Positions 14,661 to 64,000 of a stretch of DNA of 64,000 nt are shown one piece after another. How positions within the stretch are numbered: the first letter of the stretch is position 1; the number at the start of each line of letters is the position of its first letter. The notes beneath the pieces were generated by a model. It was not told where the DNA came from. It was given only the letters and a program-made list of their open reading frames with translations, and did not search any database. Source of the stretch: Eledone cirrhosa (lineage: Eukaryota); NCBI GenBank assembly GCA_964016885.1, contig OZ024743.1, forward strand, positions 337,466,001 to 337,530,000. The letters run 5' to 3'. The position numbers were made by a program, and so were the translations under genes.

Positions 14661-14664
<4 letters not shown>

Positions 14665-18455: not shown

Positions 18456-18469
18456 AATCAGAGTTGGAA

Positions 18470-20940: not shown

Positions 20941-23575
20941 AGTGATTCTGCCCAAATTACCAATCTTGTAGGTCTCTTTCTTCTATTTAACATAAATGCT
21001 TCTTTCCCCACCTTAAAGGTGGTTTATATCGTGACGACTGTCTTCTTCTTTCCGCTAACCTTAGCCTATCAGAAATTGAAAAAAATAAAAAACTTATTAG
21101 AACTTTCCTCAAAGACTATTATAGTCTCAATATTACATTTGAAAACACAAGTAAAGTAGTTAATTTCCTTGATATAACATTAGACTTATCTACGGGTATC
21201 TACCAACCTTACCATAAACCTAACCAAAATTTACATTACATACACTCACAATCTAATCACCCTAAATCTATCCTTAAAAACCTAGCATATAATATCTCAC
21301 TCAGAATTTCTAACCTTTCATCTAACCAGGATGTATTCGATAAAAATGCGACCTTTTATAACGAAGCTTTAGCTAGAAGCGGCCACAAAAACAAATTAGT
21401 ATATATACCTTGTACCAATAATACTACAAACATACAACCCAATATTACCAACAAACACCAAATGAAATATATACACCTAAATGCCACTCACACTATACCC
21501 CAAAATACCAACTTAAAACTTAATTTCTCTAACTCTTCTAATATACAATATAATAACTTTCAAAAAACCATTCATCCTAATATTCCAATATATGTTAATG
21601 TTAATAACAAAATTCCTAATAATCAGGCTAAAACACCTAAATCAATGAATCTAACTAAAAATATGTGTAATAAAATCACTAATACTAATTCTCTTAGTAA
21701 ACATCAGGATACATCGTATAAAAATAAAAAAAAACAACATCGAAACCGTAATAGACGAGTTACTTGGTATAATGCTCCATTTAATCTACAAATTAAAGAT
21801 AATATACCTAAAAAAATGTTTACTATCCTAGAGAAAAACTTCCCGCCAAACCATAAATACCATCAAATTTTAAATAGATCAACGGTCAAATTCTCCTACT
21901 CAACAACCAAAAATATACAACAAAATATAAGTGCCTATAATGCATATAAATGTAAAAAAAACATGAATATACCACCAATACATAAAACTAACCATAATAC
22001 TAAAATAAACCACAGCAAACCACCATCTCATTCACATACAACAAGTCGAGAAAATTCCACACCTAATTTGACTATCTCCTCTGATACAACATTCACGAAC
22101 GGTTGTAACTGTAGAAACAAAGCAAATTGCCCATTAAAAGGAAATTGCCTTATTAATAACATAGTATATAAATGTAAAATTAACACTAAGGACTCAACTT
22201 ATTCATATATAGGAGCTACTTCTAACCACTTTAAAGTAAGATTTAATACCCACAAACACAGTTTTAAAAATGCCGCATTAGCTAATACAACATCCTTAGC
22301 TGAAATAATTAATAATTATAGAAAAAAGAATATCGATTATAACCTGACCGGGAGTTTGCTCAAAAGAGCCACCCCTTATCAAAATAATAGATATGAATGT
22401 AGATTATGTTCCCAATAACTTTTTGAAATAATGAAATCTAAGGATATGCTATTAAATAAGCGACAAGAATTAATTATATCATGTAATCATAAAATTAGAA
22501 GAACTTTTAAATATTATAAACCTAATTAATATACACTTTACAAATTATTATGATAACATTTTTTTTTTTTAAATTAATTAACCTATAATTAATATTCTAC
22601 TATTAATGAACGGCATAATTTTATTTCCCTTTTACAGGTATCTTTTCCTAAAATTTATACCAATAAGTATACATATAAACTATTTTAATTTCAGGTTATG
22701 AATCTATATTCCTTGTAATCTATATACATTTGTTATTTCTCACTAATATATTTATCCCCCGCCCCCCCAATTATTATTATTTTTTTTCCCTTCGTTTTTA
22801 ACAACATTCTTCAATTACATCTAACTCTTATTTATCATATCTATATGAATTTTATCAATATAAATATACCTATCAATTTAATTAATTTATTTTCTTTTTA
22901 TAGATGTAAATTCCTTATGTTTTAAATAAGATTGATATTTTTCACTAACACATTTATCGTAACATTTTATTCTCCTTAGATTTTAACATTAGCATTATTC
23001 TTTTATAACATCAAATTTTCGTGTACCTTTCACCGGCCTGACTTATTTTCATCCCCAAAGTAATCTTTTCATTCAAAATACTCTTTCCATTCAAAACTGA
23101 AGTCTGCTTTCCTCTACACCTAAATTAAATTTCTATTACTACTATTCTATCATCTTGACCACTTACTACCTTTCTATTGGTCAATTCAAAACCTGTTCCC
23201 AAACAGACCTATTATATTTAATTTTTGTTGGTTTTTTTCAATAAACAAATATCATTATTTCTGAAGACAGCATATATATGTGTAGGTATGTATATTCCCT
23301 CTGATAGTTTGTAAAAATTTTACATAGATCTATATGATATACATACCAACACACACATATATATCCTAGAAACGATCGTAAAATGATGAATTTTTTAATA
23401 TAAGGAACTGTTTCTTTGTTTTTATTCATAATTTTTATTAATTTATCTTGACTCTGTTTCCTGTATTTTTCATCGAAACAATTTTGAATACATCTTCTCT
23501 TTTCATGATATTTGGATTACATTCAGTTCTTCATACGAATTGGACACTACCGTATATTTTGGTAGATTTATCTAC
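20941..23575 (+). mobile_element. 5'-truncated AT-rich Naiad PLE (RT, GIY-YIG, pLTR)
   Basis: SDSAQITNLVG, GGLYRDDC, VNFLDITL, SNHP, VTWYNAPF, CNCRNKANCPLKGNC, YIGAT. Confidence 0.9.
23252..23389 (+). ncRNA. Type I hammerhead with ~100-nt stem II
   Basis: tcattattt CTGAAGA [c ag catatatatgtgt..ggtatgtatat...atatacatacc..acacatatatat cct a] GAAA cgatcg TA aaatgatga. Confidence 0.7.
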
Positions 23576-26900: not shown

Positions 26901-27480
26901 CAAGCACGATGACTTTGTCTGCTTGAGGGATATTTCTTAAAACATCTTTCAAGGCATGGTAAAAGGACACTTTTTCTTCATCGACAGAATTCATAGTTGG
27001 AGCATACACACTCACCAGGGTCGCATATCTTCCTTTGTCCAGCGGAATTCTCATGGACATAAGACGCTCACTAATCCCTACTGGGAATTCTTCTAATTTA
27101 TTCACAAGAATAGTCTTAACAGCAAATCCTACCCCAGCCTCTCTTCTGGTTCCTTCATCTCTTCCTTTCCAGAAGAATGTATATTCTCCACAAAATTCTG
27201 TAAGATGACCATCTCCAGCTAACCTCGTCTCAGATAAAGCCACGATATCAAGATCGTAACGTCGTAGCTCCTTTGCAACAAGAGCGGTCCTTCGTTCAGG
27301 ACGCTCCAAGGAATCCCTGTCAAGCAGCGTCCGTACGTTCCAGTAGCCAAGACTAAATGCCTTGTTTGGCTCTATTACAATGGCACGATGACGAGCGGGC
27401 CCAGGCTGTGATAACCTGGGGCCCCTGCCCTTATTGCCAATTATCTTTTTTGTTCCAGAACCTAAATTGCCAATTATCTT
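23945..27480 (-). mobile_element. Near full-length RTE (BovB-like) LINE with three C-terminal C2H2-like fingers
   Basis: WNVRTLL..PERRTALVAKELRRY, LSETR, GDFNARVG, WHLLDY, TDHR; YRGISLLS, FVDLTKAFD, YADD, YLGS; fingers at 23948-24268. Confidence 0.93.
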
Positions 27481-27944
27481 TTTATATTGTTCTGCAACAT
27501 CATTGAATTGAAAAAAAAAAAAAAAAAAAAAGTAATTATAATAATAACAACAATAATAATAATAATAATTGTTTCTAATTTAGGCACAAGGCCAGCAATT
27601 ACCCAGTGCATTACTGGTACTTTATTTTATCGACCCCGTAAGGATGAAAGGCAAAGTCAACAATAATGATTTCATTTATTAGCCACAAGGGCCGACATGT
27701 AGGGGACAATACAAAGACAGGGACAGTGGGGGTTTACAATAAGGTCGAGTAAAAGTGCACAATGGCAAGACTATTTAACAATGAAAATATAAAAATATAA
27801 AATAAACTATGCATAAATATAACAAAATAAATTCCCCGATAGGGGGTGGACGACCCTGGGGTGCTTCAGGTATCCCACCAATTCTGAACCACCCTGCGCT
27901 TCTAGGGCACCCAGGAGAGCACCCCTCTCCTCAAGTTACCCAGC

Positions 27945-30900
27945 CTATAGGCGCATGGTCAGAGTAGGCCCATTCACACGAGTCATTCTCGCCACATTCA
28001 CCCACCTTTTAGCAAATGTACTGGGGGGCAGCACTTCTCTCTCCACCCTCACCCTCCTTTCCAGGTGAAACTTGAAGAAGTTGAAGAGGGATTGTCCGAA
28101 GAGAAAAGTGTCTGTCTTTAGTCCTTGCAACCTGGTCCACCATATAATCTCTTTCGCAACTGCCACCAGACAGAGGAAAATTTCCTGCTCTTCCTGACCT
28201 AAGGAAGGTGGCGGCTCGATCTTCACTATGGACTCGGCCGATAGCCGGATTCGTTCCACACGCGACAGTAGCTGTTCGACATAACTCGACAAGTCAGTAA
28301 TGCACGGACATTGGACAAGTGTGTGCAGAACGGTTTCGTCGTTCTGTGCGCATCTTGGGCAGGTCCGTCTGACAGCACTTCCGTGCCTGTAGAGTTTATC
28401 CCGAACCGGCAGTGCCCCCCGGTAGCACTGCCAAGCGAGGGATTTCTGGAAATTGTCCATCGTCCCCGGCTCAAAAGTTCTCCGGTACAGACTGGTCAGT
28501 TCGACTTCGTCGAGGCCCAAAGCTTCTCCGAGTGCGTCATCGCACTTGCCCACCACTAATCCTCTATAGAACTCGAGAGTGGAAGTTCCACTGATCGCAT
28601 TGCCCGCTTGGTAGAGGGCAGTGAGTGCCTGGCAACATTCCAGGTGCCAGTCACCCAGTCTCGGTCTCTTCTTGACCAAGGATTGCAGCTCAGTCAAAGA
28701 AATGAGCTGCGGAAAGACCTGTCTGATAAACGGCGACCACACCTGTTCACCGTTGAGGCAGAATATCTGGAGACGTCGCAGCCTCAACGCATGTCTGCGC
28801 ATCATTAGCCACGGCATGCCCAGCCCTCCGCGTAGAGGGTGCTGGCAGCAGATGGACCGCCTCACCAACGGAACTTGTCCCCTCCACAAGAATTTGAAGA
28901 GGAGCCGTTCCAACTTGACGAGGCGCGGACGGGGTCAAGGCACGACGGTTAGACGGTAGTAGATGACGGACGCGATGTACGCATTCGCCACCTCCGCGCG
29001 ACCTTTCAGTGATAGCTTCCTCCCAGCCCATTTTTGGGTGAGACTGGCTACTCTGCTCGTTACCTCGTCCCAATTCTTTTCCACCTGGAGGTCTGGTCCG
29101 AACCAAACCCAAGCAACTTTACCGGTCCGTCCGTCCAGCGCCCCACGACGCTGTTGGACGGCATGGGCTTGCCTCTCCAGGTTCCGAGCTGCAAGCCCAC
29201 CGACTTTTCCGGGTTAAGTTTGGCTCCTGTCAACCTTTCATATTCCTTCAATAAGGTGCCGACCACCTCGATGTCTGAGGTGTTCGACACCATCATCGTG
29301 ATGTCGTCCGCATAAGCCGACACCACCTTTCCACGTCCCGGTTCGAGCGGGATGCCCTGCAACAGCTCCAGCTTCCGCAGTAAAGGCTAGAGAGTCAATA
29401 CGTACAGAAGGGAAGAGAGAGGGCACCCTTGACGGACCAATCGGGAGAGCCGAAATGGTTCCGAGAGGTGGTCATTAACCTTGACCACCGAGCGTGTGCC
29501 GCTGTGCATTGCAACGATCCAGCTTCTAAAGACAGGGCCGAAGCCAGCTGCTTTGAGGACAAACTCCAGATACCGATGGTCGACCATATCGAATTCTTTC
29601 GATTGATCTAAATTGATCAGTGCCCCACCGAAGCCAGGTTTACACCCTACCCTCTCTATGATGTATCGCATGAGGTGGAGATTGTCGTGTATGGACCTGG
29701 CTGGGATTGCGCAAGTTTGCGCCTCCCCAACCAAATCCCCGACGACAAGCGCCAATCTCTTTGCTAACACCTTGGCCAAAATCTTAAACTCTGTGTTGAG
29801 CAGAGTTATGGGCCTGAAGTTGTCTAATGTATCCCTCTTATTCTCGTCTTTCTTTATCAGCGTCACCACTCCCCTGCTCACAGAACTGGGAATACTCCTA
29901 TTCTGCTGCCAGTTGCAGTAGAGTGCTTCGAGGAGTTCGGAGAACAAGTCTGGCATATTTACGTAAAGCTCGTAGGGCAGGCCATCCAAACCGGGTGACT
30001 TGCGCCTCATGCAGACGACAAGGGCGTCCTGAATTTCGGCTGAAGTAATCGGCCTTTCGCAGCGCTCAGCGTCGACCGTCGAGATGCGCGGAAAGTCGTG
30101 AAGGTAGGGACTGAAATCCGCTACTCTCTCTGACTCGCCACTCTGCCTGAACAACCGAGCAAAGTGCTGGCGAAAGGCCTCACACATCCGCTTGGAATCG
30201 CTTATCTCGTGTCCGTCTCAGTCCGCCAAAGACCGAATTGTGGTTTTATTACCACGCTGGGCCTCCACCACGCGGGCCCATCGAACAGCTTCAGTTCCCT
30301 CGTTTCTCAGCGCACGCGCCTTAGCTCTGACAATGCAACCTTCGTGTTTGGCATTGAAGAAATGGTCTAATGCCATTCTCGCCGCTAGCACGTCAGTTGC
30401 GATGCCACTACAAATAGCCTCGTCTAACTTATCTACCAGCTCCCCCTTCTTTCTATTTTTCTCTAACGCTAGTTCTTTGCTGAACTCTATCGAAGTTACT
30501 CTAATCTCTCTTTTGAGAGCCCCCCACCATCTGTTGTTGATGATCCCCCCTGTCAACTTTTGCTTAACTAAATTGTTGACTCGGTCCCTGTAAGCCTTAC
30601 GTGCCGGAAATGACATGTTCAGCTTCCAGTAACCCGGTCCTAACCTACGCGTTTTACTTAGGTCGACCGTACAGATCACAAATTTGTGATCTGAATAGGC
30701 GACCGTTTTAAAAAGTGGACAGCCCACACTATTTCTATCTATTTTCCTAATGAAGATCCTGTCTATATACGATCTAGATGACCCCATTCGGTTGGTCCAT
30801 GTCCATACTGGCACATTGGGGAAATCTAGTCGATACCTGTCAGACAGTTGGAACTGGCGGAGTAGGTGATTGAGGCTTTTGCACCCCCCGCTCCTATCGG

Positions 30901-31366
30901 CTTCTCCCACACAATCCCAGCGTGGGTCTAAGATGCCATTCCAGTCCCCCGCTAACAGTAAAGGGCGAGACGTACCCATAAAGGTCTCCAGGCGCCTAAA
31001 GAAGTCAGGTCGTCCGGCCCCTGTAGGGGCGTAGACGGCCAGCAGTCTAAAGGCACCACCTTCGCTACTGCTCACATCCAAGACCACCAACTTACCGTCC
31101 GGGACCCGGAAGATCGACCTTACCTCGAGATCCAGTCCTTTCCTAAACAGCACTGCCACCCCACCCCCCATTCCCGGCCTGCTAACAGATGCGAAGATCT
31201 GATAGTCGTCGAAAATGGCGGCTAGTGCGCGCGTGTCGGAAATTCTGGTCTCGCTTACGGCAATCACATCCATTTCCAGCGACCGGAGGTCGTTGAGCAG
31301 GCGACCCTGCTTCCAGGGTGACCCCAGGCCGCGAACATTTAAACTTCTTACTCTTAATATGGCCAT
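27945..31366 (-). pseudogene. Tx1-like ORF2: APE endonuclease, RT, C-terminal CCHC
   Basis: SLNVRGL, VYAP, GDWN, YSDH, SPGLDGLP, FRPITLLN, VRQGCPLS, AYADD, CPRC..ETVLH..C; several frameshifts. Confidence 0.92.
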
Positions 31367-31494
31367 ATTGGTAAGCTAAGAGAGAGAGAGGGAAGGTTTA
31401 CTTACCTCCCGGGTCTTGTGAAGGTCGGGTGGTTCGACCTCCATGGTTGGTGGGGTTTCTTTTGAGAACCCCTTTAAAAGTCTTTATGTGGGTT

Positions 31495-33332
31495 TCACAT
31501 TCGGGTTCCCACGTCTTGAGGAAAGCTCTCTCGAATTTCTTTGAAGGAATTGAGTGACATTCGGACCAGAAGCAAATCTTCTGGCACGCAAAATGTGCTC
31601 ATTTCAAAAATCTCCCCCTCTGTTTGAATGTCCTCGCTTCGCGCTAAGAGGGCCATCAATTTATCGTTGGCCCTTCTGACAAGCACGAAGTTTTTAACAT
31701 TTTGTTGGTGTGGTTTTATTTGTTTTCGTTTTGGTGAAGGTGGTGGCGATGGTTTTGGTGGTGTTGTTTCGGGTATGTCTATGTTTGTTGTAGGTGTGAT
31801 GTCTGCAATTTCAGGTATTTGTGTGTTTATTTGTACTTGTGTTTGTTTAGGTTGTTTGCGTTTCGGGGATTGTGGAGGTGGTGTCGATGTAGCTGTTGGT
31901 GATGATGTTATTGGGGAAATCTTTGCGTTAGTAGTGTCTGTATCTTTTGTTGTGTGTGTTTTTGTGTTTTGTTGGGGCTTTTTTTTTGTGAGTTTTCTCT
32001 GTTTTTTTGCACTTTTGGGTTTTCCTTCATCTTCGCTGCTGGAAGACAAAGGGGCTGTGTCTGTGAGTGTTTCTGTGTCTGTGTGTGCGTTTATTGTTTT
32101 GTCTATGTGTATAAATGGGGGGGGGGAGAGCTTTCCTCGTTTTCTCCTTGGATTGGTTTTGGTGTTGGTGGTGATCCGGCTGCTTTTGACGTTGGTGTCC
32201 GTGTTTTTGTTGATGTTGTTTTTGGTGGTGGTGGTGGTGCAGCTTTCCGTGCTGACACTGGCGTTGGCAACAAAGGAGGTTTGCGACCCCTTGCATTTTT
32301 GCGCTGAGGGCAGAACGTTTGAAGATGCGTTGCTTCCCCGCAGACGAAGCAGCGTGGCCTTCTTCCATCAATCATTAGTTGGATTGTTGTCCCATCCTGC
32401 AGGCGGGCAAAATCCGGGATGTTATTCATATCCTCCGGTTTCATTTGGAGAAGAATCTCCAAATCCATTCCGGACCAGTCCTCTCTCTCTGTCCTTTTGA
32501 TGTCTAGGAGGGCAGTGTCTGTCCCCTCCTCGATTACGCATCCCAGGAGCCACCATATGTTCATTCCTGGTGGGATGCTGGGAATGCGTACCTTCACTGT
32601 CCTTTTACCCATATAGGACGGATGCATGATAATGCGTTCCGTTCTGCAGGGGGTCACCGAGTGCTTAATAGCGAGGGCCTCGGTTTTGAACAGTACCGAG
32701 ATGGTACCGAACTGTTTGCCTCTTGCTTTGTACTCTATGTTACTTCCGATGTACTCCAAAGCAGCCTCTACCTCTGCTTGGCTCGCAAGTTCCACTTTTC
32801 GTGTCTGCACCGAAATACATCGAAAGAGCACCGTCCTCTTTTGCATGGCCGCTATTGCCTCGTCCGGGATGGTCAGGTTTTCCCAGGACTTCTCCCGTTT
32901 AATTAGCCTCCACGCTTTGGCCAACTGTTCGTCTTTATCGCTAATATCAATATTAATATTCAATAAGCGCTTTGTTTTTGCTGCTGCTGCTGCAAATGTG
33001 GTGTTTCTGATGCTCTTATTGTTGTTGTTGTCATTCTTGCTGTTGCCACCACCATCCTTGTTTACATTGAAGCTGTCGGTGTTATTGTCGTTATTGCTCT
33101 GAGTTGTTGTTGTGGTGGTGGTGGTGGTGGAGGTGGTGGTGATGTCGTTTTCAGATGATACTGCTGCTATGGCAGTAGGTTGTGATGGTAGCTTTTGAGT
33201 TTTGCCTTCACATTCAGTAGAGTGGATGACAGGCATGACTGTAGCCGTCGTAGTCGTGAAGAAATCTGCAGTGGCTGCCTTTAAACTTTTGACCTGAACG
33301 TTGTTTACCGTTTCAAGGTCGAAAATTTCCAT
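31495..33332 (-). pseudogene. Tx1-like ORF1 with CCHC zinc knuckle
   Basis: CFVCGEATHLQTFC; one frameshift at the G homopolymer ~32117-32127. Confidence 0.8.
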
Positions 33333-33699
33333 AATTTTCTTTTGGTGGGGAAGCGATTTTTTTCGAAGTTTTTAAAAATAAATCTGAATATTCGGGCTTG
33401 AAGCCCGAATATTGAGAGGTATTCCTCTCTTTAAATCAAGATGTGTACCTTAAGTTTCGTTAACGAGAAGAAAATACAAAAAAAATGACACTTTAAAACA
33501 GCTTAAAATTACGAACCTTTTTTCCCCGCAGACTTGTCTGTCTTCACACATGTGCGGCCATAATAATAATAATAATTGTTTCTACTTTTGGCACAAGGCC
33601 AGCAATTGCTCAGTGTATTACTGGTACTTTATTTTATCGACCCCGTAAGGATGAAAGGCAAAGTTAACAATAATAATAATAATAATACACTATTAATAA

Positions 33700-34504: not shown

Positions 34505-34880
34505 GGTGGCTGCCAACTCGTTTTCGAGTACAGCCACTACTTTATATCCATGTAGGAGAACCCCTACCGATGCGTTGAACGAGTGTGACTTTTTAGTCCA
34601 GCCAGCGACTTTAAAACTCTGGTACAAACACTACACTTGTGACAATTATTGACAGATAGTGCTGGGCCCATGGTACCATGTGACGACAAGTGAAGAGAGA
34701 TCTCTAGATATAAAGCAATGCCTGTGCCGTGAAACTTTTATCGTGAGCAAAGGCACTGCACAAAGCCAGTCCCACTCTCTTAACCAAGATGATATTTATC
34801 AAAAAGAAGAACAAGTCAACATCATTGGATACCATCAGGGTTGCAGGTGTTATATCAGAGTTTTCCTTCTCCTAGAATAT
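33700..34880 (+). repeat. Two diverged copies (~33715-33900, ~34715-34880) of an unclassified repeat flanking a (TA/CA)n block
   Basis: Shared gcaatgcctgtgc..tcccactctct..aaaagaagaa..tcaacatcat..ttctcctagaa. Confidence 0.55.
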
Positions 34881-34937
34881 GCTGATTTAAAACTGCAATA
34901 TTTACAAGTGTGTTTTAACCTTCATATCATGTCCCCC

Positions 34938-35008
34938 TATTTTATCTGACGAAAACGCAAATGTTATTGCCTGATGATATTTGTTTTTGAAATGCGCATA
35001 ATAAAATA
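34938..35008 (+). ncRNA. Type I hammerhead
   Basis: tattttat CTGACGA aaacgcaaatgttatt gcct gatgatatttgttttt GAAA tgcgca TA ataaaata. A homologue lies at 63135 (-). Confidence 0.8.
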
Positions 35009-35036
35009 CATGGAATGCTTTTAACCATCTTTTGAT

Positions 35037-35070
<34 letters not shown>

Positions 35071-35793
35071 TATATATACAATATCGGAGAAGCTTTATAG
35101 CGATACTCCGGCCAAATTCCAACTCACTCAACAAACATTAGGAAATAAGTCATTATATTCCTAATTAAGCGTTCGGGGTGCTAACTAAAAGTATTGCGTT
35201 GAAAATTGGCTGTATTATTTCATATGAGACATATCGAATATATCTCTTCCCAGACGGACGTCTCGTTTCATTATAGGATTCCTACAATTTGGGTGAAATT
35301 ATACCAATTTATGTAGGAGCTTGTATACCATCAATAGATATATATTCAAGTGGGCTCCTATAATTCATCAGTGGGTGCCCCAATAATACTAATATTGATA
35401 GTCTAATCAACATCAGCATTTAGCGATAATCATCATCAGTGCCAGAGGTATCTGTCAGGTTGCCAGTCCAGCAGTTCTAAAGAAATGCTCAAACTGATTC
35501 AAATATGAGGAAGTAAATTACCGCCAAAAAAAAAAAACAATACATGCGCATGACAATGAACTCTAAAAGTAATTCAGGCCACATGCTAGAACCCAATTGG
35601 AAATTGAAAAAATATCTGTGTGTACAACGTTTGATGACACACAGATATTTTCTCGGGCAAAATAACAGAATGAGATATAAGGAACAATCAATATTCATAT
35701 ATAAAAAAATAAACAAAGAAAGGCTAACCTTATACCGGGAATTTCAAATCTGTTGGACCAAGAGTAAATAAATACATAGAATATCGGAGGAAG

Positions 35794-35990
<197 letters not shown>

Positions 35991-36159
35991 TAATATGTTG
36001 AGAAGGTAACACACCAGAGAGAGATATATAGTGCGTTATCAATAATACAGGGAAAAAAACCACCAGTGTATGGAATCTATAACCTATGAAAGGCAGACTA
36101 TAGACACGATAATTAAAAATATAAATTAAAGCGTAAATAAATACCTTTATAACTATATA

Positions 36160-36240
36160 ACACACGTACAAATCCAAAGATATGTTTCACCAAAAAATTT
36201 GTTGAAAGAAATGGTCTAGTCTCGGTTCATCAGCGTGTGT
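36160..36240 (-). ncRNA. Type I hammerhead
   Basis: acacacg CTGATGA acc...ggt GAAA catatc tttg gatttg TA cgtgtgt. Confidence 0.8.
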
Positions 36241-36701
36241 AAGGCCATACATTTCAGACAACACTAAGAGAATTTTACAATTGACTGTCCAGCTACACGT
36301 GGGAGAAAGAAGTCACAGCGTGTTTAAGGGCAGTGAACCAGTGGCCTCTGAGAGACGAACTGCTAGAAAGGGCAGCCCAAAGCCACTCAGAGAAGTGTGC
36401 TCAACCAAACAGAGATAGGAAAGACTGTTATTAGGAGCGAAATATCACGATAAATTAACGGAGCCATAGGCCGTCGTTATTCCCTGTAAATAATGTGCTC
36501 AAAGGAGAAGAGATCCTGAGCCCTTTAAAATATAATATGTTGAGAAGGTAACACACCAGAGAGAGATATATAGTGCGTTATCAATAATACAGGGAAAAAA
36601 ACCACCAGTGTATGGAATCTATAACCTATGAAAGGCAGACTATAGACACGATAATTAAAAATATAAATTAAAGCGTAAATAAATACCTTTATAACTATAT
36701 A

Positions 36702-36782
36702 ACACACGTACAAATCCAAAGATATGTTTCACCAAAAAATTTGTTGAAAGAAATGGTCTAGTCTCGGTTCATCAGCGTATGT
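36702..36782 (-). ncRNA. Type I hammerhead (second copy)
   Basis: Same motif; the single stem I change gives a G-U pair. Confidence 0.8.
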
Positions 36783-37171
36783 AAGGCCATACATTTCAGA
36801 CAACACTAAGAGAATTTTACAATTGACTGTCCAGCTACACGTGGGAGAGAGAAGTCACAGCGTGTTTAAGGGCAGTGAAAATATACATATATATATATAC
36901 ACAAATACACACATATATATACTAGACATGAAAAATGCGCAAGCTCAAAAGTGCCACAGAATGTTATAATAAACCTTCAAAAGTGTGGGACTAGAGTTGT
37001 TGCTAAAAAATATTGTAATCATTATATATCGTACATTCTGTGGCATCCTTTATAAAAATAGCTTAAACCAACGAAGCCTTTATTTTTACGCTATTTCACT
37101 TAGTTAATTCTTAGAGTGTAACATATAAAAATATGATTTACAACTATAAAATAAATTAATTAATATAATAA

Positions 37172-42808: not shown

Positions 42809-44016
42809 AAAGAATAGAGGTGTAACACACGAGTTGTGATATATTGGTAAAAGGAAAAGAAAATGCTGACAAATTGTTCCCAGTGAAAAATAATTTAATT
42901 AGGAATAAGTAAAAATTAGTAATAAGTATTGGTTAGTATTCAGTTTTAGTTTTAAGTTTTTACCGGTTGCGCATTTCTAATGCTTTTCAAAAATAATTTT
43001 GAGATAGAGCGCCCGTGATGTTTTCTCTAATCTGATTAGTTTTGGAAATTCTACCTGTTTTATGTGAAAAAAGTGGCTCCAGAGAGGTATTAAAATAAGT
43101 TTCGCGCCAATTCGTGTTGCAAAAATTCTTGTGGTCAAAACAATTTTGATTGGTCGGTAGAGGTCACGTGAATGTTAAAAATTGATTTTGCGCCAAATGT
43201 AGGTTTGTCGAAGAGCGTCCTTTTTCGCCTGATTGAGAAGTCACTGAAAAATAAGTCTTTTAAGACAAATATGTGTGTGTGTGTATGTGTGTGTGTGTGT
43301 GTGTGTGTGTAGCAGAGTAATTCGTGGTAGAGGGATCGGCCAGTAGGAATGTGTCTGTACGTGTGTGGGGGATATTTTAACATGTTGAAAGATATATTTC
43401 AGCTCTTGTCTTATACGGAGAAGTGTGTGTGTGCGTTTGTGGTTGTGTATATGTCTCTGTGTATGTTAGTGTACGCGTGTGTATGTGTGTGTATATATGT
43501 GTGTGTGTGTGTGTATAAGTGTGTATGTGTGGGTGGCCCAGTATTTTTGTGATACTGGTAAAAATGGTGTACATTATTCGATATTTTCAGCAAAAACGAT
43601 TCTCTCAAGAGAACATCAAAAACCTTAATAATAAAAGGTGTGAAATGATATATAGTATTGTCATAACACCAAGGTGTGTGCGAGTGTCCAGATTGTACGT
43701 ACTGCAAGGGGAATCCATTAGGCCCTGCCGTATTGGAATACTTGTGAACAAATATGTATGTGCCCATCAGTGTGCAATGCATGTGTGCGTATATGTATGT
43801 GTGTGTGTCGGCACGTTTATATCTATAGACATCAGAAGGTATGCAAATTTGTGTATATTTGTGTTGCACCATAGAACATGTGTGTTTACGTATATCATTG
43901 TGTTTATATGTGTATTGAGATGTATGTAGGATGTATGCTGATGTAGGTATGTATGTTGACGTGTGTATGTTGTGGGTTCGTCTTAGGGAGAAGTGTTTAA
44001 ACGGAGTCCGTATTTG

Positions 44017-44759: not shown

Positions 44760-47690
44760 TACTCATAAATATACGCATATACGCAGGCACATAAAAACAG
44801 CTCTACAAGCATAAAATGCAGATAGGTAAGAGGTACTCACATAACTATAGTGGCCGTATTTCAGGTTGAGGAGGGGTGGTGTTGGGGTGGAAAGGAGGTA
44901 GAGAGGCTAAAAGGGGGAAGTCGTTTTTAGCCATCGGGCATTAACACTGGCTTAAGGTATTTGAAAGTTGGAAAGTTCCTGTGCATGCAGTTCGGGCAAT
45001 GTTCAGAGAGTTTGTTCAGTAGAGGGCCCTTGGCGAATAAAATGTCGTAGCTCTCTGAGATACAAAGGTCGCAGCCTTTGTGTCCTCTGTTGTAAGAGCG
45101 CGCTTTCTGGAGTATTTTCCATTTAAGCGTGAAGGGGGTGGAGTTCCTTTTAAGGTCCCAAACATAGGAGGCGAGTGTTGTCTAGTTTGATTTGTCCGGT
45201 CTTCTGAAGGAGTGGGTATGGGCATACCAATGGGTCTTAAAGTTATTGGAAGTCATGCCGATGTAAGTCTTTTTGTTGTTGCAATCATCGGTGCCTGAGA
45301 TGACATCGCATTTGTATACGATATCATTTGTCAGGCATTTGTTTTCAAGTGGGCAGGCTTCCTTATTTAGGCAATTACACAAGGCCCCAGTCCGGGGATT
45401 GGGTTCAGAGGTGGTTGGCTTATTTAATTTTTTAGAATTGTGATTGGCTATAATCCTAGCTAGGTTAGGTGTGGTGGAGTAGGAGAGTCTTATTGTGTTC
45501 TTATTAAAGATAGTGTAGTAACTATGTTGTATGGGGAAGTGTGTTTTCAGCAAAGTGAAGAAAATCCTAGCTATAGGTGTAGAGACCTCTCTGTTGAAGA
45601 GAGGGTTGTACCAGCTAATCTGCCTATGCCTATTCCTCCTCTGCAATCTTGCGGTGGTTTCTAGGTAGGTTATCTTTTCTTTAAATTCGCTGCGGGAGAG
45701 GGCGTCATTGTAGTAGGAGGCAGAGGCGTTAAAAATATCTTCATTGGCAGAGAGGCCAGAGATTCTAATAGAGACGCTTTTTACTAAGTTATCAGTGATG
45801 TTTTTGGGGTGGTTAGAATTAACATTAATATATCTAAGGGACTCGTTAGGTTTGTGGTACGGGTAATAGAGGGAAGTATCTAGGTCGAGAGTGACATCTG
45901 AAAAGTTAGCCCTAGTCATATTAGATTCTATAATTATACTAAATCCTAGATTAGAGAAGAACGAGCTTAAGTTTCTCCGAAACCCATCGGTGGTTCTGGG
46001 GTTAAACTTTTGCAGGGCGAAGAGGCCGTCGTCTCGGTATAAACCTCCGGTTAGGCCAGTAAAGAGGTTCTTCAGGTGATGTAAAATGTACAAGCCCACA
46101 AGGTCGCTAATTTCAGCCGAGTCACTCGCTCCCATGCTGACGTCAAATGGGGTCTGAGACTTCTTGTTGATCCAGTAAAATCCATCGTGGTATAGAAAGG
46201 TCTTAAGAGCGTGGAGGATAACAACTTGCTCTGCATCGGTAATAGTGGTAAAATTCCTGGCAAAGGTAATTGCGTCCTTCAGGAGGGGCTCCGAGATAGA
46301 AGCATAGTAGTTTTCTATGTCGAGTTGCAGGAAGCGAGTGTGGCGTTTGTCGGGTAAATCTTGGAACCAGGATATTGCCTCAGATATTCTGCTCCAGAGT
46401 GGGAGTGGTGAGGCAACCCGCAATTATGGTAGAACTCTATCTAGGATCTTCTTACTGATAGAGCCGATGTCTGAACGAGTGGGGTTGATAAGTCTGACTG
46501 ATGGTTTGTTGAGGAAGTTTCCCTCATGGTCCTTCAGGGTAAAGTTCGGTGTCTTTACTCTTAAAGGTTCGGTTCGGTCATGTAATTTAAGGGACCTGGC
46601 GATTTCTTTTCCGGCCGCGTTTGTCTCAGTCAATGCCATCTCTATTACCTTTTTGTAGGTGGTCGTGATGGCATTTTTTGCCAGCTTATGGTAGGTCAGT
46701 GGGTCTACCTCATAAACGTTTTTGGTTTTATCGGAGGAGACATGAAAATTAGGGGATTTTTTTATATTCCGCAATTCAGTATTTAAGTAGGCCAGGAATG
46801 GTGTGGTGGCTTTACGGAATTTGATATCTTTGATCATCTTGAAGAGGTCTTCTTCAAATAGTTCAAGAGGGTGTTGGTGGGTGGTGCCTTATTCGTTTTG
46901 AAGCCGAACTTCTCATCATTGGTAGACGTTACATCAGGGTTGTCGAGGAAGAAGGCTCTCCATCTAATACGGTTGATGAACTCGTTGGTACGTCTGATGA
47001 GTGTTTTTAAGTAAAGTTTCCTTGGAGGGATGGGGATGTTCTTCATGGAGACATCAAGGTGGAGTTTGGTCAGCATAGTATCTTGGTGATGGTTATAAGG
47101 AGCACAGAGGGTGCTAAAAGGTACGTTATTCCGGGTTGAATCGGAGGTAACCACAGTAAGTAAGGTACTCAATACATAGCAGAGTATAAAAGTTTTAATA
47201 TAGATGAGATTCTACAGGACTAGAACTGTTTCATTCTTTAGAAATCATCCGGAATCTGGGTATCCAAAAATAAAAGTGGTATATATAGGTCTTTTCAGGT
47301 GGTAGGAGAGGGTGGGGAGGGGAGGGGTAGAGGTCATTGGTTGATAGAAAAGGGAATTCATTAAAAGCTAATTCTTTAAAGCTATAATTTATATTTAGAG
47401 TGACAAAGGCAGAAAGAATTCTATAAACAAGTTCAGATTGGGGTGCCACTCCTTATTTTTAAGTTTCTCTTAAGCTAACAATGCCTATATTTCAGGTGTC
47501 AATAAGATCGTTGGGGGTCGGTCATGGTTGAAGGATTTAAAGAAAAGGGAAATTCTTTAAAAGCTAATTCTTTAAAGTTCTACTTAGAGTGACAAAGGCC
47601 AAAAGAATTCTATAGACCAGTTCAAAATATTGGGTGCCTATCATATCATTATCTTCAAATTTCTCTTAAGCTATGTTCCATGTGTCAATA
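44760..47690 (-). mobile_element. Naiad-type PLE with disrupted ORF (~47075 to 44950) and upstream pLTR
   Basis: SMKNIPIP, FINRIRWRAFF, SDKTKNVY, FLQLDIENYYASI, GLYRDDGL, SNHP, CNC..CPL..C, YIGMT. Confidence 0.92.
47207..47257 (-). ncRNA. Type I hammerhead, variant core CGGAUGA
   Basis: agattc CGGATGA tttc taaa gaat GAAA cag ttctagtc ctg TA gaatct. Confidence 0.65.
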
Positions 47691-55146: not shown

Positions 55147-58100
55147 TGTGAAACTAATAAACCTTTGTTCGTACTGCCTCTCTGTTTTGTTCCCGTTCCA
55201 TTTTTCACTATACAATACATGCTCCCACGGCTTCCATACCACCTTGGAATACTACCTTGACTACCGGCTCAACCCCGATCTAATCCTCCGTGACCACTCT
55301 CTGAACTTTCCCCACACCTTCCCACAATTTGTTTTTTCCTTTCTTTGCATTACTTTTTGATTGATTTATTTACTGTACTTGTTTATTTCTGTCTATGATT
55401 TTTTGTCCATGATTGCCTGTGTTTTTACGATTATGATTTTTTGTCTAGGATTTTCCTGTGTATACTCTCCTCTCCTTACGTCATTTCTGTTTGATTTTCC
55501 TTCCCCCGTCTCTGCCTATCTTTCGCACTCACCCTTTCGCCCTCCCCCGCTTCACACACCTCCCCCTGCTTTCACTCCACGCCCACCATGCCCAGCCTGA
55601 GATCCTTTCTCCACCAAATCCACACCCGCCTCAAACTTTTCCTCACCCCCCTCCTCCCACCCAGCTATCTCCCCTCGGCCATTCAACTCTCCTACCTTCT
55701 CTTCGCCAAAACCCGGCACTCCAGCCACATCCATTTCTTCAGCCACTGCCTCCACCTCCACCTTATCTCCCTCAGCTTCCGTCTACACTTCCACACCTCC
55801 CCTCCCCCCGCTTCCCCCTCCACCCAACGTATCCTCGCCGGATCCTCGCGCCTCCTAATGCGCCACTCCCTCCGCTCCTCCTGCTCCACCATCCGCAAAC
55901 TTGACTAACAACTGACCCCCACCCTCCTCCGCCTTAACTCCGCCTGCCACCCCCTCCTCGCCCACTCCATCCTCCTCTTCATCCAAAACCTCAACCACGA
56001 CCTCTTCTCCTACCTCACCTCCACCAAAGCCCTTAAACTACACTCACTCATCCCCCTCCCCCCGCCCATCCCTATGACCCCCACCCCCATCCCACCCATC
56101 TCCACCACTCTCCATCCCACCACCTCCAACACCCCTACCCAATCTCCACCGCCACTTCACCCCTCACCACACCCCCACCCCTCCTCCCTTACACACCCAA
56201 CCCCCCACCACTTGTTGTCACCATACCCCCTGACGTCCCCCTCTCCACAACTGAGCGCTCACTCCTCAGTAGAAGCCTTCGCTTCATACCCCACACTCCG
56301 CACAGCGACGAGTTCCGCACCCGAACGGAAGTCGAGTGGTTCGTACGACGCACGAAGCTACAGGCACATTTTAATCAAACGCCACCGGCTCCGAACGCCC
56401 CAGACCCGTTTCTCGCCCTGGGCCGATGACCATCGTCTTGGACGCCGGCCCCAGGGCAATTTAGCACCTTGGACGCGTTCGTCGATGCCTGCCGTAGCGC
56501 AGTAAATCGCTTCAACTTCCGCCACCGGTCCCAACGGAATAACATCTCACGGGGCGAACTCCTCGCTCTCCTTCCGTAGCCGAGATGACATCGTCATCAA
56601 ACCGGCGGACAAGGGAGGGGCCGTGGTGGTGTGGCGCGCTGACCTCTACACGGCTGAAGCCCTAAGGCAGCTCCGTAACCCCTCTTTTACCACCCTCTAC
56701 CCTCCGATCCCACACCCCTCTACCAACAAAAAGTTTCCTCCACCATCCAACACCTTGTCTCCACCTCCCTCCTCCCCCCACCGCTTCCCACCTCACCGTC
56801 CGCACCCCCACACCCCCACTATCTACTTCCTCCCCAAACTCCACAAACTCGACAACCCCGGCCGCCCCATCGTCTCCGCTTGCAACTGCCCCACCGAACT
56901 CATATCCCCCTTCCTTGACTCCATCCTCGCCCCCCTCGTCACCCCCCCCCTTCCCACATCTCCGACACCAACCACGCCCTTCGCCTATTCGACTCCTTCA
57001 CCTTCCCACCCGGCCCACAGCCCTTCCTCTTCACCCTAGATATCAAGTCGCTCTATACAGTCATCCCACACGCCGACAGCCTACGTGCCCTCAAGCACTA
57101 CCTCGACCTTCGCCCCTCCCCCATCCCCTCCAGCCCCACCCTCCTTCGGCTCGCCAAGCTAGTCCGCACCCTCAACTGTTTCTCCTTCTCGGGTGAGTTT
57201 TACCAACAGGTCACGGTGGTAGCCATGGGCACAAGAATGGGCCCAAACTATGCCAACCTTTTCGTTGGCCATGTTGAGGCCCAAATCTCTGCCCAGTACA
57301 CCGGCCCCACGCTCGAACTGTACGGTCGTTACATCGACGACTGTATCGGAGCCACGACCCTCACCCGAGAACAGCTCGATTCCTTTCTCTCCTTCTTCTG
57401 CTCCTTCCACCCCTCCCTCCACTTCACCACCTCTATCTCCACCACCCACGTCCACTTCTTAGACATCTCCGTCGCCTTCGACCCCTCCCACCACTGCCTC
57501 GTCACCTCTGCCTTCTTCAAACCCACCGAATCCCACTCCTATCTCGACTTCACCTCCTCCCACCCTACACACACTAAACACTCTATTCCCTACTCCCAAC
57601 TCCTCAGGAGCCGCCACTGTAGCCGAGATGCTGACTTTGAGTCCCAGGCCCTTTCCCTAGTCAGCCATTTCATCCGCAGAGGTTACCCCCCTTCCCTCGT
57701 CCACACTGCCCTCACTCGCGTTCGTGCTGTCCACCGCTCCACCACCCTCACCTCACGCCACCGCACACCTACCCACCGTATCCTCTTCCCCATCACCTAC
57801 CACTCCTCCACCGCACCATCCTCCGCCTCTTTCGACGCCTCCAGTCCGACCCCTCCACCTCCCACATCTTCCCAGCCCCACCACTCCCCTCCTTCAAACG
57901 CGCACGCAATCTCCGCACCCTCCTCGTCCGCAGCTCCATACCCTCCAACCACGCTCTTTCCCCCCCCCGGTTCCCTTCCCTGTTCCAGGCCTCGTTGCAA
58001 CACCTGTCCCAACATCACCAACACCACCACCTTCCAGGGTCCCAACAGCCACTCTCTCTCTGTCCGGCACGCCTTCCGCTGCACCTCCTCCAACCTAGTC

Positions 58101-59705
58101 TATGGACTTCGCTGCAGGGAGTGTAGCGCAACCTACATCGGACAGACTGGACGTCGCCTGGCGGACCGTTTTACCGAACACATCCGGGATATTCGTCTCG
58201 GCGGGAGTTCCCCCATCGCCCGCTACTTTGGCTCCCCTGGACATTCCGCGCACCACCTCACAGTCTGTGGCCTACTCCAATGCCACGGAACACCCGTCAC
58301 CCTTCTCAAGTTCGAACAACACACCATCTTCACCCTACAGACCCACACTCCTCCGGCCATAACTCCCCACCCCTATTCCTTTAGCCTTCGACCCCCCCCC
58401 CCCCCCTCTCACACACATAACCCCCACTAACATACTCCTCCTTTTCACCGCCCACCCCACAACTAACAATACTAACACCCCACCCACACCCCTTCACACA
58501 CACACACACATCCCACTAACATCTCTTCTAATACACCCCCACCCCTGCCCGCACAACCCCCTCCCGACTCCACCTTTCACAACTCCCCATCCTCTCCCCT
58601 GTCCACCGCACCTCCGCACACACTGACACACCGACTTTGTCCACCTGCCATTCTCCCCTACTGCTGCTATGCTCTGACTCTCTGACCACCTCTCCGCACA
58701 CACAGACACACAACCCTCTCCACCTGTCCTTCTCCTCTACCCTCCTCCTGCCTTGACCCTCTGACCACTTTCTGTTGCGCGCGCACCCCACATCTCCCCT
58801 CTTCCGACCAACCCAACCACGGATTACACACATTGGACATCGCTCCTACGAGTCAACTCCATCACAAGGAAAATATCCGGCACCTCACGACACCCTCTAC
58901 GGAACTAACTTAGGAACTTACCCAAGGATATACGCTCACAAAAATCTTTTTTCCCACACGCCACCTACACCCACAATACGTATAAACACCACACACACGT
59001 GCGTACTCCCACATATTTACACACTCAGCCTCCGGAATCCTCACACCTCCTCCCCCACCCCTTTGACCCATCCCCATCCCCACGCGCACGCACACATCGA
59101 CTTACACCCCACCCCACACACATCTTTTCCGGAATATGGAACCTCGTTCTTCCCCCAACTCTCACATTCACATACATACATACACACACACACTTACACC
59201 TACACACACACACCACCTTTGCATCTCACCACATCCTCTACGGAACTACCTTAGGTTTACCCATGGCCATACACTCACAAAATTTTTTTTTCCCACACGC
59301 CACCTACATCCACAAAAAACACATACACACACACACGTACACCTACACACACACACCACCTTCAGCCCTCCCCGCTCGGACACCCGCCTCCCTCTCCCCA
59401 CTCCACTCCCACCACCCCTACACGCCCCACATCCTTCCACCACTTGTTTATCTTCATGTTTATTTTTATTTTTATTATTTTTATCATTTTTTAATATTAT
59501 TTTCATTTGTACCCCTACCACCGTCCGCCCCTTTTTTTCTAAATGTCTCTCCCCCACTTCCCTACACACCCTTGGAACTCTCTTCCCACACACTTTTCGC
59601 CTGAAGAAGGGCTTATGCTCGAAACGCCCCCCCCCCACTCTCAAGAGTGTGAAACAAATAAAACTTTGTTCGTACTGCCTCTCTGTTTTGTTCCAGTTCC
59701 ATTTT

Positions 59706-60505: not shown

Positions 60506-61251
60506 TGGGGATTCTTTTCTTTGTTTTTGTGCCTCTCCTTTGTTCTGTCCTACGCCATCTTGTTTTTGTGTGTGTTGTGTTCTTAGTTTGCGCATGTGTT
60601 ACATCCGGGTATCTGTGTGTGTTTATATTTGTTTATTTATTTGTTTATTTACATGTTACTGGCTGGTTGTTTGTTCTATGTGCGTGTGTGTTTTCATTTT
60701 GTCCTTAATTGTAAGTTGTGATGTTGCTGTTCCATTCATGATTCATGTACAACATCACAACTTACAATTAGGGACAAAATGTACTAGTTTCAAGCTTATT
60801 AGCTATCGTCAGCAACGTATACCTTCCTGCCAGATTGTTGAACGTATATACTTATCTTATGCATATTAACGGCTGAGTAGCCCAATTTGCATATCGAGTG
60901 GGTTAATCGGCCGGGTGCACCGAAAACGATAAACGGAAAAATTGAAACGAAATTTCATTTCCCACTCTTAGTACGGCTGTTACTTAAATATAAGTATGTA
61001 CACGTACATACACATATGTATACCGAGGTACAGTAGTATGTATATATATATATATATATACATATATGCACACATATATATATGTACGTATGGATTCACC
61101 GAACATTTATTATAATGCTCGGTGTATTTGTAAACGTTTATTGTTTTCGGTGCACCCGGCCGATTAACCCACTCGATATGCAAATTGGGCTACTCAGCCG
61201 TTAATATGCATAAGGTAAGTATATACGTTCAACAATCTGGCAGGAAGGTAT

Positions 61252-61294
61252 ACGTTGCTGACGATAGCTAATAAGCTTGAAACTAGTACAGCGT
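61252..61294 (+). ncRNA. Minimal type I hammerhead
   Basis: acgttg CTGACGA t agct aata agct t GAAA ctag TA cagcgt. Confidence 0.85.
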
Positions 61295-61671
61295 TCCTTT
61301 TTCAGTGTTGAACAAACGATCAACGATGGTTGCTGGACACTACGGCTTAATACGGGATGTTTGTTTACAAACACACCGAGCATTATAATAAATGTTCGGT
61401 GAATCCATACGTACATATATATATATATATATGTGCATGTATGTATATATATATACATACTACTGTACGTCTGTATAAATATATGTATGTACGTGTACAT
61501 AATTATATTTAAGTAACAGCCGTACTAAGAGAGGAAATTTCGTTTCATTTTTTCCGTTTATCGTTTTCGGTGCACCCGGCCAATTAACCCACTCGATATG
61601 AAAATTGGGCTACTCAGCCGTTAATATGCATAAGGTAAGTATATACGTTCAACAATCTGGCAGGAAGGTAT

Positions 61672-61714
61672 ACGTTGCTGACGATAGCTAATAAGCTTGA
61701 AACTAGTACAGCGT
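61672..61714 (+). ncRNA. Minimal type I hammerhead (second copy)
   Basis: Identical motif 420 nt downstream. Confidence 0.85.
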
Positions 61715-61984
61715 GCCTTTGTCAGTGTTGAACAAACGACCAACGATGGTTGCTGGACACTACGGCATAATACGGGATGTTTGTTTACAAACACACCGAG
61801 CATTATAATAAATGTTCGGTGAATTCATACGTACATATATATATGTGTGCATGTATGTATATATATATACATACTACTGTACGTCGGTATACATATATGT
61901 ATGTACGTGTACATACTTATATTTAAGTAACAGCCGTAACAGCCGTACTAAGAGTGGGAAATGAAATTTCGTTTCATTTTTTCC

Positions 61985-62024
<40 letters not shown>

Positions 62025-62083
62025 CAAGCCTCTGATACCATCAACACTATACACACTAAGCTGGCATATCTAAGAACTGACTA

Positions 62084-62139
62084 ACTGCCTGATGAGGTCA
62101 TAGCCATTCAATGGCTATCATCGAAATATATATAGCAGT
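62084..62139 (+). ncRNA. Hammerhead in a solo pLTR fragment (62019-62161) of the 9-14 kb Naiad family
   Basis: Identical to 10164-10219. Confidence 0.85.
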
Positions 62140-62179
62140 AAAGGATTATGTTTCGTCACTATATATATATATATATGAA

Positions 62180-63020
62180 AGACGTAAAATAAGAACATTT
62201 TAAAAATTAAAAATTAACTTACTTACTAAAATTTTCACTCCAACTAATTAGTTTCTGTAATGGGATAAAGATAGTTACGCAATGTAACCATCGAGAATTC
62301 ATTACGTCATCAGGGAGTCTATTCTCAGCTAAGTCTCCAGGCAATGCGCGGACACTAGGGACTCATATAAAAATAATAATTCGGTGGATGGATCAGCTAG
62401 CGGGGACTAAATTCCATAGCACTGAAAAAGTTCACTGTCTCTGGTCAAGTGGCAGATTCTAAAGAATCAATCACGTGACACTGAGGCTAGTCAGTAGGAG
62501 TGGGATGGTATTATGACAAGAGCCTACTACCACTACTATGAGTTAGCAGTGGATTTGGCAAGTTTGCTCAACAGATAAATAATTTGGAGATAAATATAGA
62601 GAATTAGTATATTTACCAACATATGCGTACAGATGTACACTAATGTTAGCAAATACATAAGTTATGTCATAGTACCTAGGTGGTTCAATGCAGGGGGATG
62701 CAGAACAATTATATGACAGACGTAAAATAAGAAAATTTTAAAAATTAAAAATTAACTTACTTACTAAAATTTTCACTCCAACTAATTAGTTTCTGTAATG
62801 GGATAAAGATAGTTACGCAATGTAACCATCGAAACTAATTAGTTGGAGTGAAAATTTTAGTACGTAAGTTAATTTTTAATTTTTATAATTTTCTTATTTT
62901 ACGTCTTTCATATAATTGTTCTGCATCCCCCTGCATTGAACCACCTAGGTACTATGACATAACTTATGTATTTGCTAGCATTAGTGTACATCTGTACGCA
63001 TATGTTGGTAAATATACTAA

Positions 63021-63022
<2 letters not shown>
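62180..63022 (-). repeat. ORF-less element with a 538-bp direct-repeat period and an inverted 5' arm
   Basis: 62180-62293 recurs at 62718-62832; 62831-63023 is inverted to 62600-62794. Confidence 0.85.
62237..62318 (-). ncRNA. Type I hammerhead with extended stem II
   Basis: actcc CTGATGA c gtaatg..gatggttac attgc gtaactatc..cattac a GAAA ctaattag TT ggagt. Confidence 0.8.
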
Positions 63023-63097
<75 letters not shown>

Positions 63098-63099
63098 AT

Positions 63100-64000
63100 A
63101 TATAAGATCAAAAGATAGTTAAAAGAGTTCCATGTATTTTATTATGCGCATTTCAGAAAACAAATATCATCATGCGATGACATTTGCGTTTTCGTCAGAT
63201 AAAATAGGGAGACATGATATGAAGGTTAAAAAACACTTGTGAATAGTGCAGTTTTAAATCAACATATGAAAAGTAGTTTTAGATTGATGTGTGATATTGA
63301 GAAAAAAAATTTTGAGGGGGGGGGGGGTGATGAAAAAGAGGAGGAGATGAGAGTAAAGAATGGAGGGGGAGGAGTATAATAAGAAGGATGAGATAGGCGG
63401 AGAGATAGGTGATAGAGAGAGAGAGATAGCTTTTATAACTGAGAAAAATATATTGTTTTACATAGAGAGGTTAAAAAAACGTTGGAAGATAATATATAAA
63501 TTAAAAGAATTTGAAAATTAACGAAGAGAAAAATTTTAGAATAATGTTAAATTAAGGTTTGTATATTGAAGGGTTTAATAATATGTGCGATGAAAAGAAA
63601 TTGTTAATATGTATTAAGAATAATATTTAAGGGTTTAATAATATGTGCGATGGAAAGAAATTGGTGATATGTATTATTAAGATAAAAAAAAAAAATATAA
63701 CAATAGTAATGTAATTAAGGATATATTGTGAAAAGAAGTAGAAGAGTGGATGAATAAGTGTAATATGTATAAGTTAGATGAGCATGAAAGGGAGAAAAAA
63801 ATAATGAATTGAGGATGAATAATCTAACGTCAAAAAAATGTTTATGTTTACGAAGGATTTTTCAAGGTGATATAAAGTATTTAAAAGGGTAATCTTCCTC
63901 CAAGAGATGTTATAGTTAATATTTTTGTCTTTCAAGGACCATATGAGTTCTGAGAGTGCCGTGTTGGTTCTTTTAAGTTGGTATTTAAAAGACGAATGAT
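63100..64000 (-). mobile_element. 3' end of a Naiad PLE running off the window
   Basis: The reverse complement of 63895-64000 translates HSSFKYQLKRTNTALSELIWSLKDKNINYNISW, followed by a pLTR with an HHR. Confidence 0.75.
63135..63206 (-). ncRNA. Type I hammerhead
   Basis: tattttat CTGACGA aaacgcaaatgtcatc gcat gatgatatttgttttct GAAA tgcgca TA ataaaata. Confidence 0.8.

Follow-up and report, generated by a model that had tools for sequence, protein, structure and literature searches.

The window analysed here, a 64,000-nt stretch of the Eledone cirrhosa genome, contains one copy of a non-coding 538-nt hammerhead unit. The minus-strand layout given for this copy in a preliminary description, with a full hammerhead at 62318-62237, the 3' half of another at 62832-62775, and an inverted arm, was present in full (Table 1); the copy itself holds one full and two partial hammerheads. 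Self-comparison returned a 123-nt direct repeat, 98% alike at a spacing of 538 nt, and an inverted arm of 207 nt at 96% identity; beyond the arm junction, unit sequence (62831-63022) is followed by (CT)10 (63023-63042) and then by (AT)n. Positions within the unit are given below as q, counted along the minus strand over 62832-62172, with the predicted cleavage after q53.

Table 1. Features of the window copy and its immediate flanks
Feature	Position	Strand	Remarks
Arm ending at site A	62172..62832	-	1.23 units (661 nt); terminal ATATA matches (TA)n target
538-nt monomer between both predicted cleavage sites	62242..62779	-	36% GC
Full type I hammerhead motif	62237..62318	-	Long two-part stem II; predicted cleavage after GUU, 62242/62241
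3' half of upstream hammerhead	62775..62832	-	Cut by arm-arm junction
Second (inverted) arm, ends at site B	62831..63022	+	2-nt overlap with first arm at 62831-62832
(CT)10 run, terminal B end	63023..63042	+	Internal B site is (CT)2
112-nt 'tail' between internal sites A and B	62598..62709	-	Short hairpin plus long conserved hairpin
Long conserved hairpin of tail	about 62657-62608	-	Stops just before B
Splice-donor-like motif	62217..62226	-	15 nt past cleavage site; subfamilies share it, but nothing indicates that it is used
(TA)n target remnant, A end	62160..62171		Common to end of another hammerhead family
(AT)n target remnant, B end	63043..63090		Follows the (CT)10 run

The unit was said to lack an ORF, and this holds: its longest ATG frame spans 40 aa and its longest stop-free frame 83 aa, and neither the ORF list nor a frame search of the unit contained an RT/GIY-YIG ORF. 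The donor-like motif that had been pointed out is present downstream of both predicted cleavage sites, and its columns (q68-76) are conserved at 0.97-1.0 in the family alignment. Among 190 spanning alignments, none displayed intron loss or a deletion starting at this motif, a null result that says little because introns are reportedly retained in Penelope-like elements (PLEs; PMC8557442).

On each side, the unit is bordered by the end of a different hammerhead-bearing PLE lying in the same (TA)n tracts. The segment at 62017-62159 on the plus strand carries the hammerhead (62084-62139) and upstream-type end of another family; it matches 10097-10234 and 14245-14370 at 94-97%, two stretches on either side of a decayed PLE ORF (10394-13021), and it meets the 538-nt element tail to tail across (TA)n. 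On the other side, 63064-64000 on the minus strand, with a hammerhead at 63206-63135, is part of an ORF-bearing PLE reaching about 2 kb past the window end (L197), and a related copy lies at 34877-35078.

Further repeats were seen elsewhere in the window. A 420-nt hammerhead tandem family occupies 60780-61990 (hammerheads at 61252-61294 and 61671-61715), has its own inverted arm, and has its upstream end in an AT-repeat-rich segment. A 542-nt unit with two hammerheads (36782-36702 and 36240-36160) lies at 35986-36879 on the minus strand, and another hammerhead, whose stem II spans 95 nt, at 35375-35249. The preliminary description had compared the 538-nt unit with this 542-nt unit; the sizes are close, but the likeness is not one of homology, because no BLAST match to 35986-36879 was obtained at E 1e-8. 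An abundant fold-back-like repeat with a shared terminal motif is found at 42862-43276 and 3148-3327 and adjoins a unit copy at another locus (L127). Decayed PLE-like ORFs of several types (17964-19293, 20991-22418, 45182-47211, and 56506-58430) and LINE-like ORFs read from translations (14495-17231, 24470-27579, and 27945-33371) are also present, and weak GIY-YIG or RT matches were obtained for three of seven ORF fragments.

The unit family and its hammerhead

Searches of the genome (about 3.0 Gb) with an exact 27-mer of the unit gave 947 matches, and a gapped full-hammerhead pattern gave 5,015; reversed controls gave none in either case. Because the exact 27-mer is so frequent and its reversed control absent, the 538-nt unit is not a chance arrangement. 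A DNA search with the unit yielded 3,573 candidates, and the 40 that were scored included full-length matches at 93-98% identity, on many contigs, and several tandem arrays. With part of the unit as query, the family was also detected in three contig sets of one sample, a result that bears on its presence and not on ends, strand, or expression. A 15-nt motif from the loose end of a contig was set aside, as it matched only a subfamily copy.

The conservation of unit length, proposed earlier as a check, was borne out: hammerheads were spaced 508-560 nt apart in 62 of 63 cases (median 538), and the lone outlier, at 973 nt, spans two insertions. Arrays hold about one to six units, with up to five full monomers in one array, and subfamilies are about 75-93% like the window copy. 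There is a type I hammerhead per tandem unit, and some loci contain consecutive complete hammerheads. The spacer, previously called unique, proved in the genome search to be conserved family sequence; across 140 loci (L001-L140) it runs into the next unit and not into an ORF, which speaks against its being part of a longer pLTR. These features fit an animal non-LTR retrozyme, i.e., a non-autonomous PLE. For this genome such an element is ordinary, there being many hammerhead families of like build. At least ten other type I hammerhead families were seen in the flanks of 100 of these loci (L001-L100); several end about 45-60 and 130-200 nt past the cleavage site, and in one, CCGAAGA replaces the usual core.

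The window hammerhead comprises a 5-bp stem I, CUGAUGA, a 51-nt stem II region, GAAA, and a palindromic stem III, with predicted cleavage after GUU. At its base, stem II contains a C-A mismatch, and the nucleotide at the cleavage position is U, giving a triplet that is allowed, though slower. Rfam at gathering thresholds returned no match in the window. In the minimum-energy fold (z -2.81), stems I and II form, while the catalytic core pairs with the stem III sequence and stem III is absent. Across 25 selected variants, 94.3% of cells were paired and double changes occurred at 10 of 23 pairs; slid controls were 31-44% paired, and none of 500 shuffles scored as high, a test inflated by the kinship of the variants. 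CUGAUGA was retained in 214 of 216 copies, all of them pattern-matched, and substitutions amounted to 1.3% in core columns versus 6.0% elsewhere, with many of the loci chosen by core patterns. Together, the covarying stems and the kept core argue for a hammerhead under selection. Folded as a circle, the monomer has a predicted energy of -135.6 kcal/mol (z -6.4 versus 40 dinucleotide shuffles). The tail hairpin is likewise conserved, yet double changes were seen at just 3 of its 28 pairs. Against an active ribozyme count the trapped core in the lowest-energy fold, the lack of an Rfam match, and a study of Xenopus in which eight of nine predicted retrozymes failed to cleave in vitro (10.64898/2026.07.22.740005).

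Insertion ends, paired arms and template form

Copies of the unit are dispersed and have scattered 5' ends and fixed 3' ends. Their fixed ends fall at site A (q118-123) or at site B (about q235); each of the two sites carries AU-repeat words and leads into (TA)n. The earlier term 'ribozyme-delimited mini-element' therefore stands in part: the element is a non-coding hammerhead unit of conserved length with PLE-type spread, but its insertions are bounded by A and B rather than by the ribozyme. Target-site duplications are unreadable because (TA)n lies on both flanks.

To classify the ends, a first sample was drawn from 27-mer matches in chromosome order and scored by script and then by hand. 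Of its 36 head-to-head insertions, 26 were clean A+B and none was clean A+A or B+B; among the other ten, three had one end shifted by a few bases and seven had an arm broken or cut off, the nearest case to A+A being L066. A second sample of 40 further loci from diverged subfamilies, with ends read by hand, contained 26 head-to-head insertions, 22 of them A+B and 4 unclassifiable. The window copy is also A+B. One candidate for B+B (L135) was rejected, as its arm extends past B. A one-sided tail of 30-40 nt is known in PLEs (PMC8557442, PMC3846280); strict A+B pairing is a refinement of it, and the main mechanistic trace is partly in print.

The inverted arm had been attributed to PLE-type 5' inversion. 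In 12 of the 26 clean copies, however, the arms are not nested either way, which disfavours a simple 5' inversion or fold-back, and the arm starts lie more than 15 nt apart in 22. It is accordingly unlikely that the inverted arm arose by fold-back or self-priming of one cDNA (or from an antisense template) that was then resolved at the tail, a route proposed in print for rotifer Penelope elements (PMC3846280). The window copy would suit it, with a B arm wholly inside the A-arm sequence and differing at 4 of about 195 positions, as would the palindromic arm-arm junctions in 4 of the 26 copies and the close relation of the arms in general; chimeras whose arms belong to different families (L062, L093, and L016; see below) count further against it. 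L1-style twin priming, in which one arm begins where the other ends, was also rejected, since the pattern of arms does not match.

Kinship between arms was assessed in 47 insertions. The partner arm was at least as close as any other locus in 31 and within the best tenth by closeness in 41, and median divergence was 2.5% within arm pairs versus 9.7% between. These values suggest that the two arms usually come from one template lineage. In our best reading, a single cut supplied both primers, one of its ends priming at A and the other at B, and the template was one RNA or several transcripts with a common source. A literature search, biased toward open-access papers and confined to main texts, returned nothing on PLE twin priming, slippage, or A/B pairing beyond the papers cited here, and no paper on repeat addition by a PLE RT.

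The two positions of site B differ in their (CT)n content. Internal B sites read (CT)2 in 73 of 75 cases and never more ((CT)3+ in 0 of 75), whereas terminal B ends carry (CT)3+ in 36 of 52, with up to 42 repeats and 10 in the window copy. With CTCT at the nearest internal B, extra (CT)n was found in 45 of 51 terminal ends, and with any other template in 5 of 26, in a tally that counts one duplicate locus twice and in which subfamilies are not independent. A pre-existing (CT)n target is unlikely, because (CT)3+ adjoins only 31 of 1,759 other (AT)6+ runs and none sandwiches one. Of 36 background (AT)n runs in which two CT are already present, 29 have long CT runs, which makes later expansion or target choice a plausible alternative. 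We favour slippage of the RT on CUCU as it starts synthesis, with a confidence near one half.

The 5' ends of the arms bear on the form of the template. Sixteen of 105 fall at q54-68, 0-14 nt past the predicted cleavage site (p 4e-8 versus uniform, for a window picked after the data had been seen and a sampling 27-mer that biases against such arms). This pile-up points to cDNAs that ran off a cleaved RNA end. Another cluster lies at q499-536 and may be due to the same sampling or to the stem II hairpin. Read-through hammerheads are intact, so the arrays would derive from uncleaved multimers or ligated circles; jumping of the RT from one linear monomer to the next was rejected with 1 indel in about 191 copies at each cleavage-site base. 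In one array (L190, G000:C1:199062000-199067000), three sites alternate perfectly, ABAB, over six to seven units, a pattern that fits a two-unit circle or a two-unit duplication. Taken with the intact read-through junctions, it would fit a circular or multimeric template. Five other arrays have at least three monomers; four are without a split site and one has a single non-alternating site, although arrays of three units are unable to display an alternating split.

Helper search and chimeric insertions

The preliminary description suggested looking for an autonomous PLE that shares the tail, and none was found in loci L001-L140 or in 109 loci around three PLE protein queries. Ten PLE fragments of the window, used in tblastn, together with comparison of the flanks in L001-L100 and L101-L140, revealed no ORF-bearing copy of the unit, and the 109 loci (30 for each query plus further stretches) contained no shared pLTR, in a sample that is small against 5,015 pattern matches. 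ORF fragments near unit copies are separate insertions, with the exception of L062. The helper is therefore unproven, because no ORF-bearing element sharing the hammerhead or the tail was found.

These searches also bear on whether the unit is a mere terminal repeat (pLTR) of an autonomous PLE in 5'-truncated form, which we regard as distinctly improbable. PLE insertions are mostly 5'-truncated (PMC8557442), and the window copy has on either side a hammerhead-bearing end of a PLE that carries an ORF, as this explanation would have it. One unit nevertheless leads directly into another, in runs of up to six, none of the units in L001-L140 has a PLE ORF joined to it upstream in sense, and the 109 PLE-query loci, few as they are, point the same way.

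At L062 (2931-5757), an A-ending arm of the unit is fused directly, head to head, to a truncated young PLE, which supplies the downstream end. The family of this PLE (P0001) has at least 150 matches, nearly all at 97-98% protein identity. A copy at L171:2457-4610 (G000:C1:437198000-437216500) has a 3,531-nt tandem period and a 717-aa ORF, whose translation contains RWK-like and DKT motifs, a CxCx5C linker, and, at the C terminus, a GIY-YIG domain lacking CCHH; its target is (TA)n. Compared by motif with PMC8557442, P0001 classes as a Hydra-clade PLE. It shares no sequence with the 538-nt unit. It has two fixed ends 83 nt apart, with one of each in all 17 clean two-armed loci (L176 and L179 are not among these). 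Its sense strand, read over more than one full 3,531-nt period, contains no CTGANGA core, although the Hydra clade is described as having hammerheads universally.

Two further chimeras were identified. L093:2186-3232 joins a B arm of the unit to the upstream end of the 420-nt hammerhead family, and L016:1350-2155 joins an A arm to the apparent upstream end of another family, which looks like A+A, against the rule. The three chimeras thus comprise two A+B and one apparent A+A, with no microsatellite at the junction. They establish that different RNAs can enter one insertion and do not identify the helper; a Hydra-clade helper is a candidate, on the strength of one chimera. At L095:2848-4100, a portion of the 420-nt family lies ahead of a unit arm and shares its orientation, possibly through a template switch.

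Proposed mechanism and relation to known elements

Overall, we consider it probable that the window copy is a head-to-head insertion of a high-copy 538-nt retrozyme, made into (TA)n by a borrowed PLE RT/GIY-YIG protein that primed on both cut ends, at A and at B. The family size, unit length, conserved structure, (TA)n flanks, two ends, A+B pairing, and kinship of the arms are observed parts of this model. In the proposed course of events, arrays would be transcribed, and the hammerhead would cleave some junctions to give linear RNAs whose 5' end is the cleavage site, probably along with circles. The structured A-B tail would be bound by a PLE protein (probably a Hydra-clade dimer), which would nick both (TA)n strands. 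The two 3' ends would pair with AUAUA/UAUAU words, one end at A and the other at B, where slippage of the enzyme on CUCU would add extra (GA)n before it moves on. Both cDNAs would copy back through at least one unit, often stop at the cleaved 5' end, and be joined via short overlaps.

A more specific version is offered tentatively, as somewhat less likely to be right than wrong. Here an asymmetric, telomerase-like PLE RT dimer would start two cDNAs at fixed sites on one RNA, at times a two-unit circle, and would re-copy CUCU up to about 40 times, thereby writing (CT)n(AT)n microsatellites; the helper would be a ribozyme-less Hydra-clade PLE with which the unit shares no sequence. It is highly improbable that the unit is instead a satellite-like repeat that spreads at the DNA level, through recombination or rolling-circle copying, and carries the ribozyme along: tandem arrays exist, and unequal crossing-over could yield the two-unit period of one of them, but the copies are dispersed in (TA)n with fixed 3' and scattered 5' ends, the RNA stems covary, and the 5' ends pile up past the cleavage site.

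Animal non-LTR retrozymes are regarded as non-autonomous PLE derivatives (10.64898/2026.07.22.740005). The 538-nt unit resembles them in its non-coding tandem units with one type I hammerhead each (PMC7229834; 10.64898/2026.07.22.740005), GC below 50%, lack of an LTR, strongly self-paired predicted circle, several subfamilies, and PLEs alongside. Its length is above the 150-450 bp given in PMC7229834 and within the 51-972 bp given in 10.64898/2026.07.22.740005. Its 51-nt stem II is unusually long, and for this unit cleavage and circular RNA are predicted features. In contrast to those retrozymes, it has no PLE pLTR homologue that we could find, and fixed A/B ends are not part of the retrozyme descriptions consulted.

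Several features are also shared with PLEs that encode an endonuclease (EN+; PMC8557442, PMC3846280), namely, head-to-head arms, 5' truncation, extension at one end, (TA)n targets, and a hammerhead upstream of the ends; insertion into (TA)n is known for PLEs of the Hydra (PMC8557442), Naiad, and Neptune clades. The unit differs in having no ORF, a tail of 112 nt instead of 30-40 nt, and the tail at exactly one end in every classifiable case, where those accounts say 'often' or 'optionally'. The non-autonomous PLEs of Chlamys, e.g., MRC1 (PMC8557442), are likewise non-coding and multicopy, arranged head to tail, with PLE-type ends; in general an autonomous family has the same 3' end, whereas none was found for the 538-nt unit.

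The closest biochemical parallel is the anole Poseidon element PAc (Frangieh et al. 2024, PMC11167929), whose protein, a predicted dimer, cleaves both strands, extends both, and initiates at two internal sites on either side of the tail. As proposed for the unit, PAc has two internal starts next to a stem-loop that lies downstream of the hammerhead, targets rich in AT, and extension of both strands. In vitro, the anole PLE displayed no difference in start site between strands, a point against the model. The PAc starts are not homologous to the cut DNA, whereas sites A and B carry AU words matching (TA)n; and no RNA ends were found at the cleavage site with PAc, whereas the genomic 5' ends of the unit cluster past it.

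To what was known, the present analysis adds the 5'-end cluster, the template-linked (CT)n, the ABAB array, and the fusion to a young Hydra-clade PLE. How inverted PLE insertions with a one-sided tail are made is an open question in the PLE literature consulted, and the value of the unit lies in its being a record of PLE mechanism, with counts that make A/B starts, run-off, and repeat addition testable. No RTs are more closely related to telomerase RT than those of PLEs (PMC8557442); therefore, repeat addition by a PLE RT, if true, would be a functional link between the two and a source of microsatellites.
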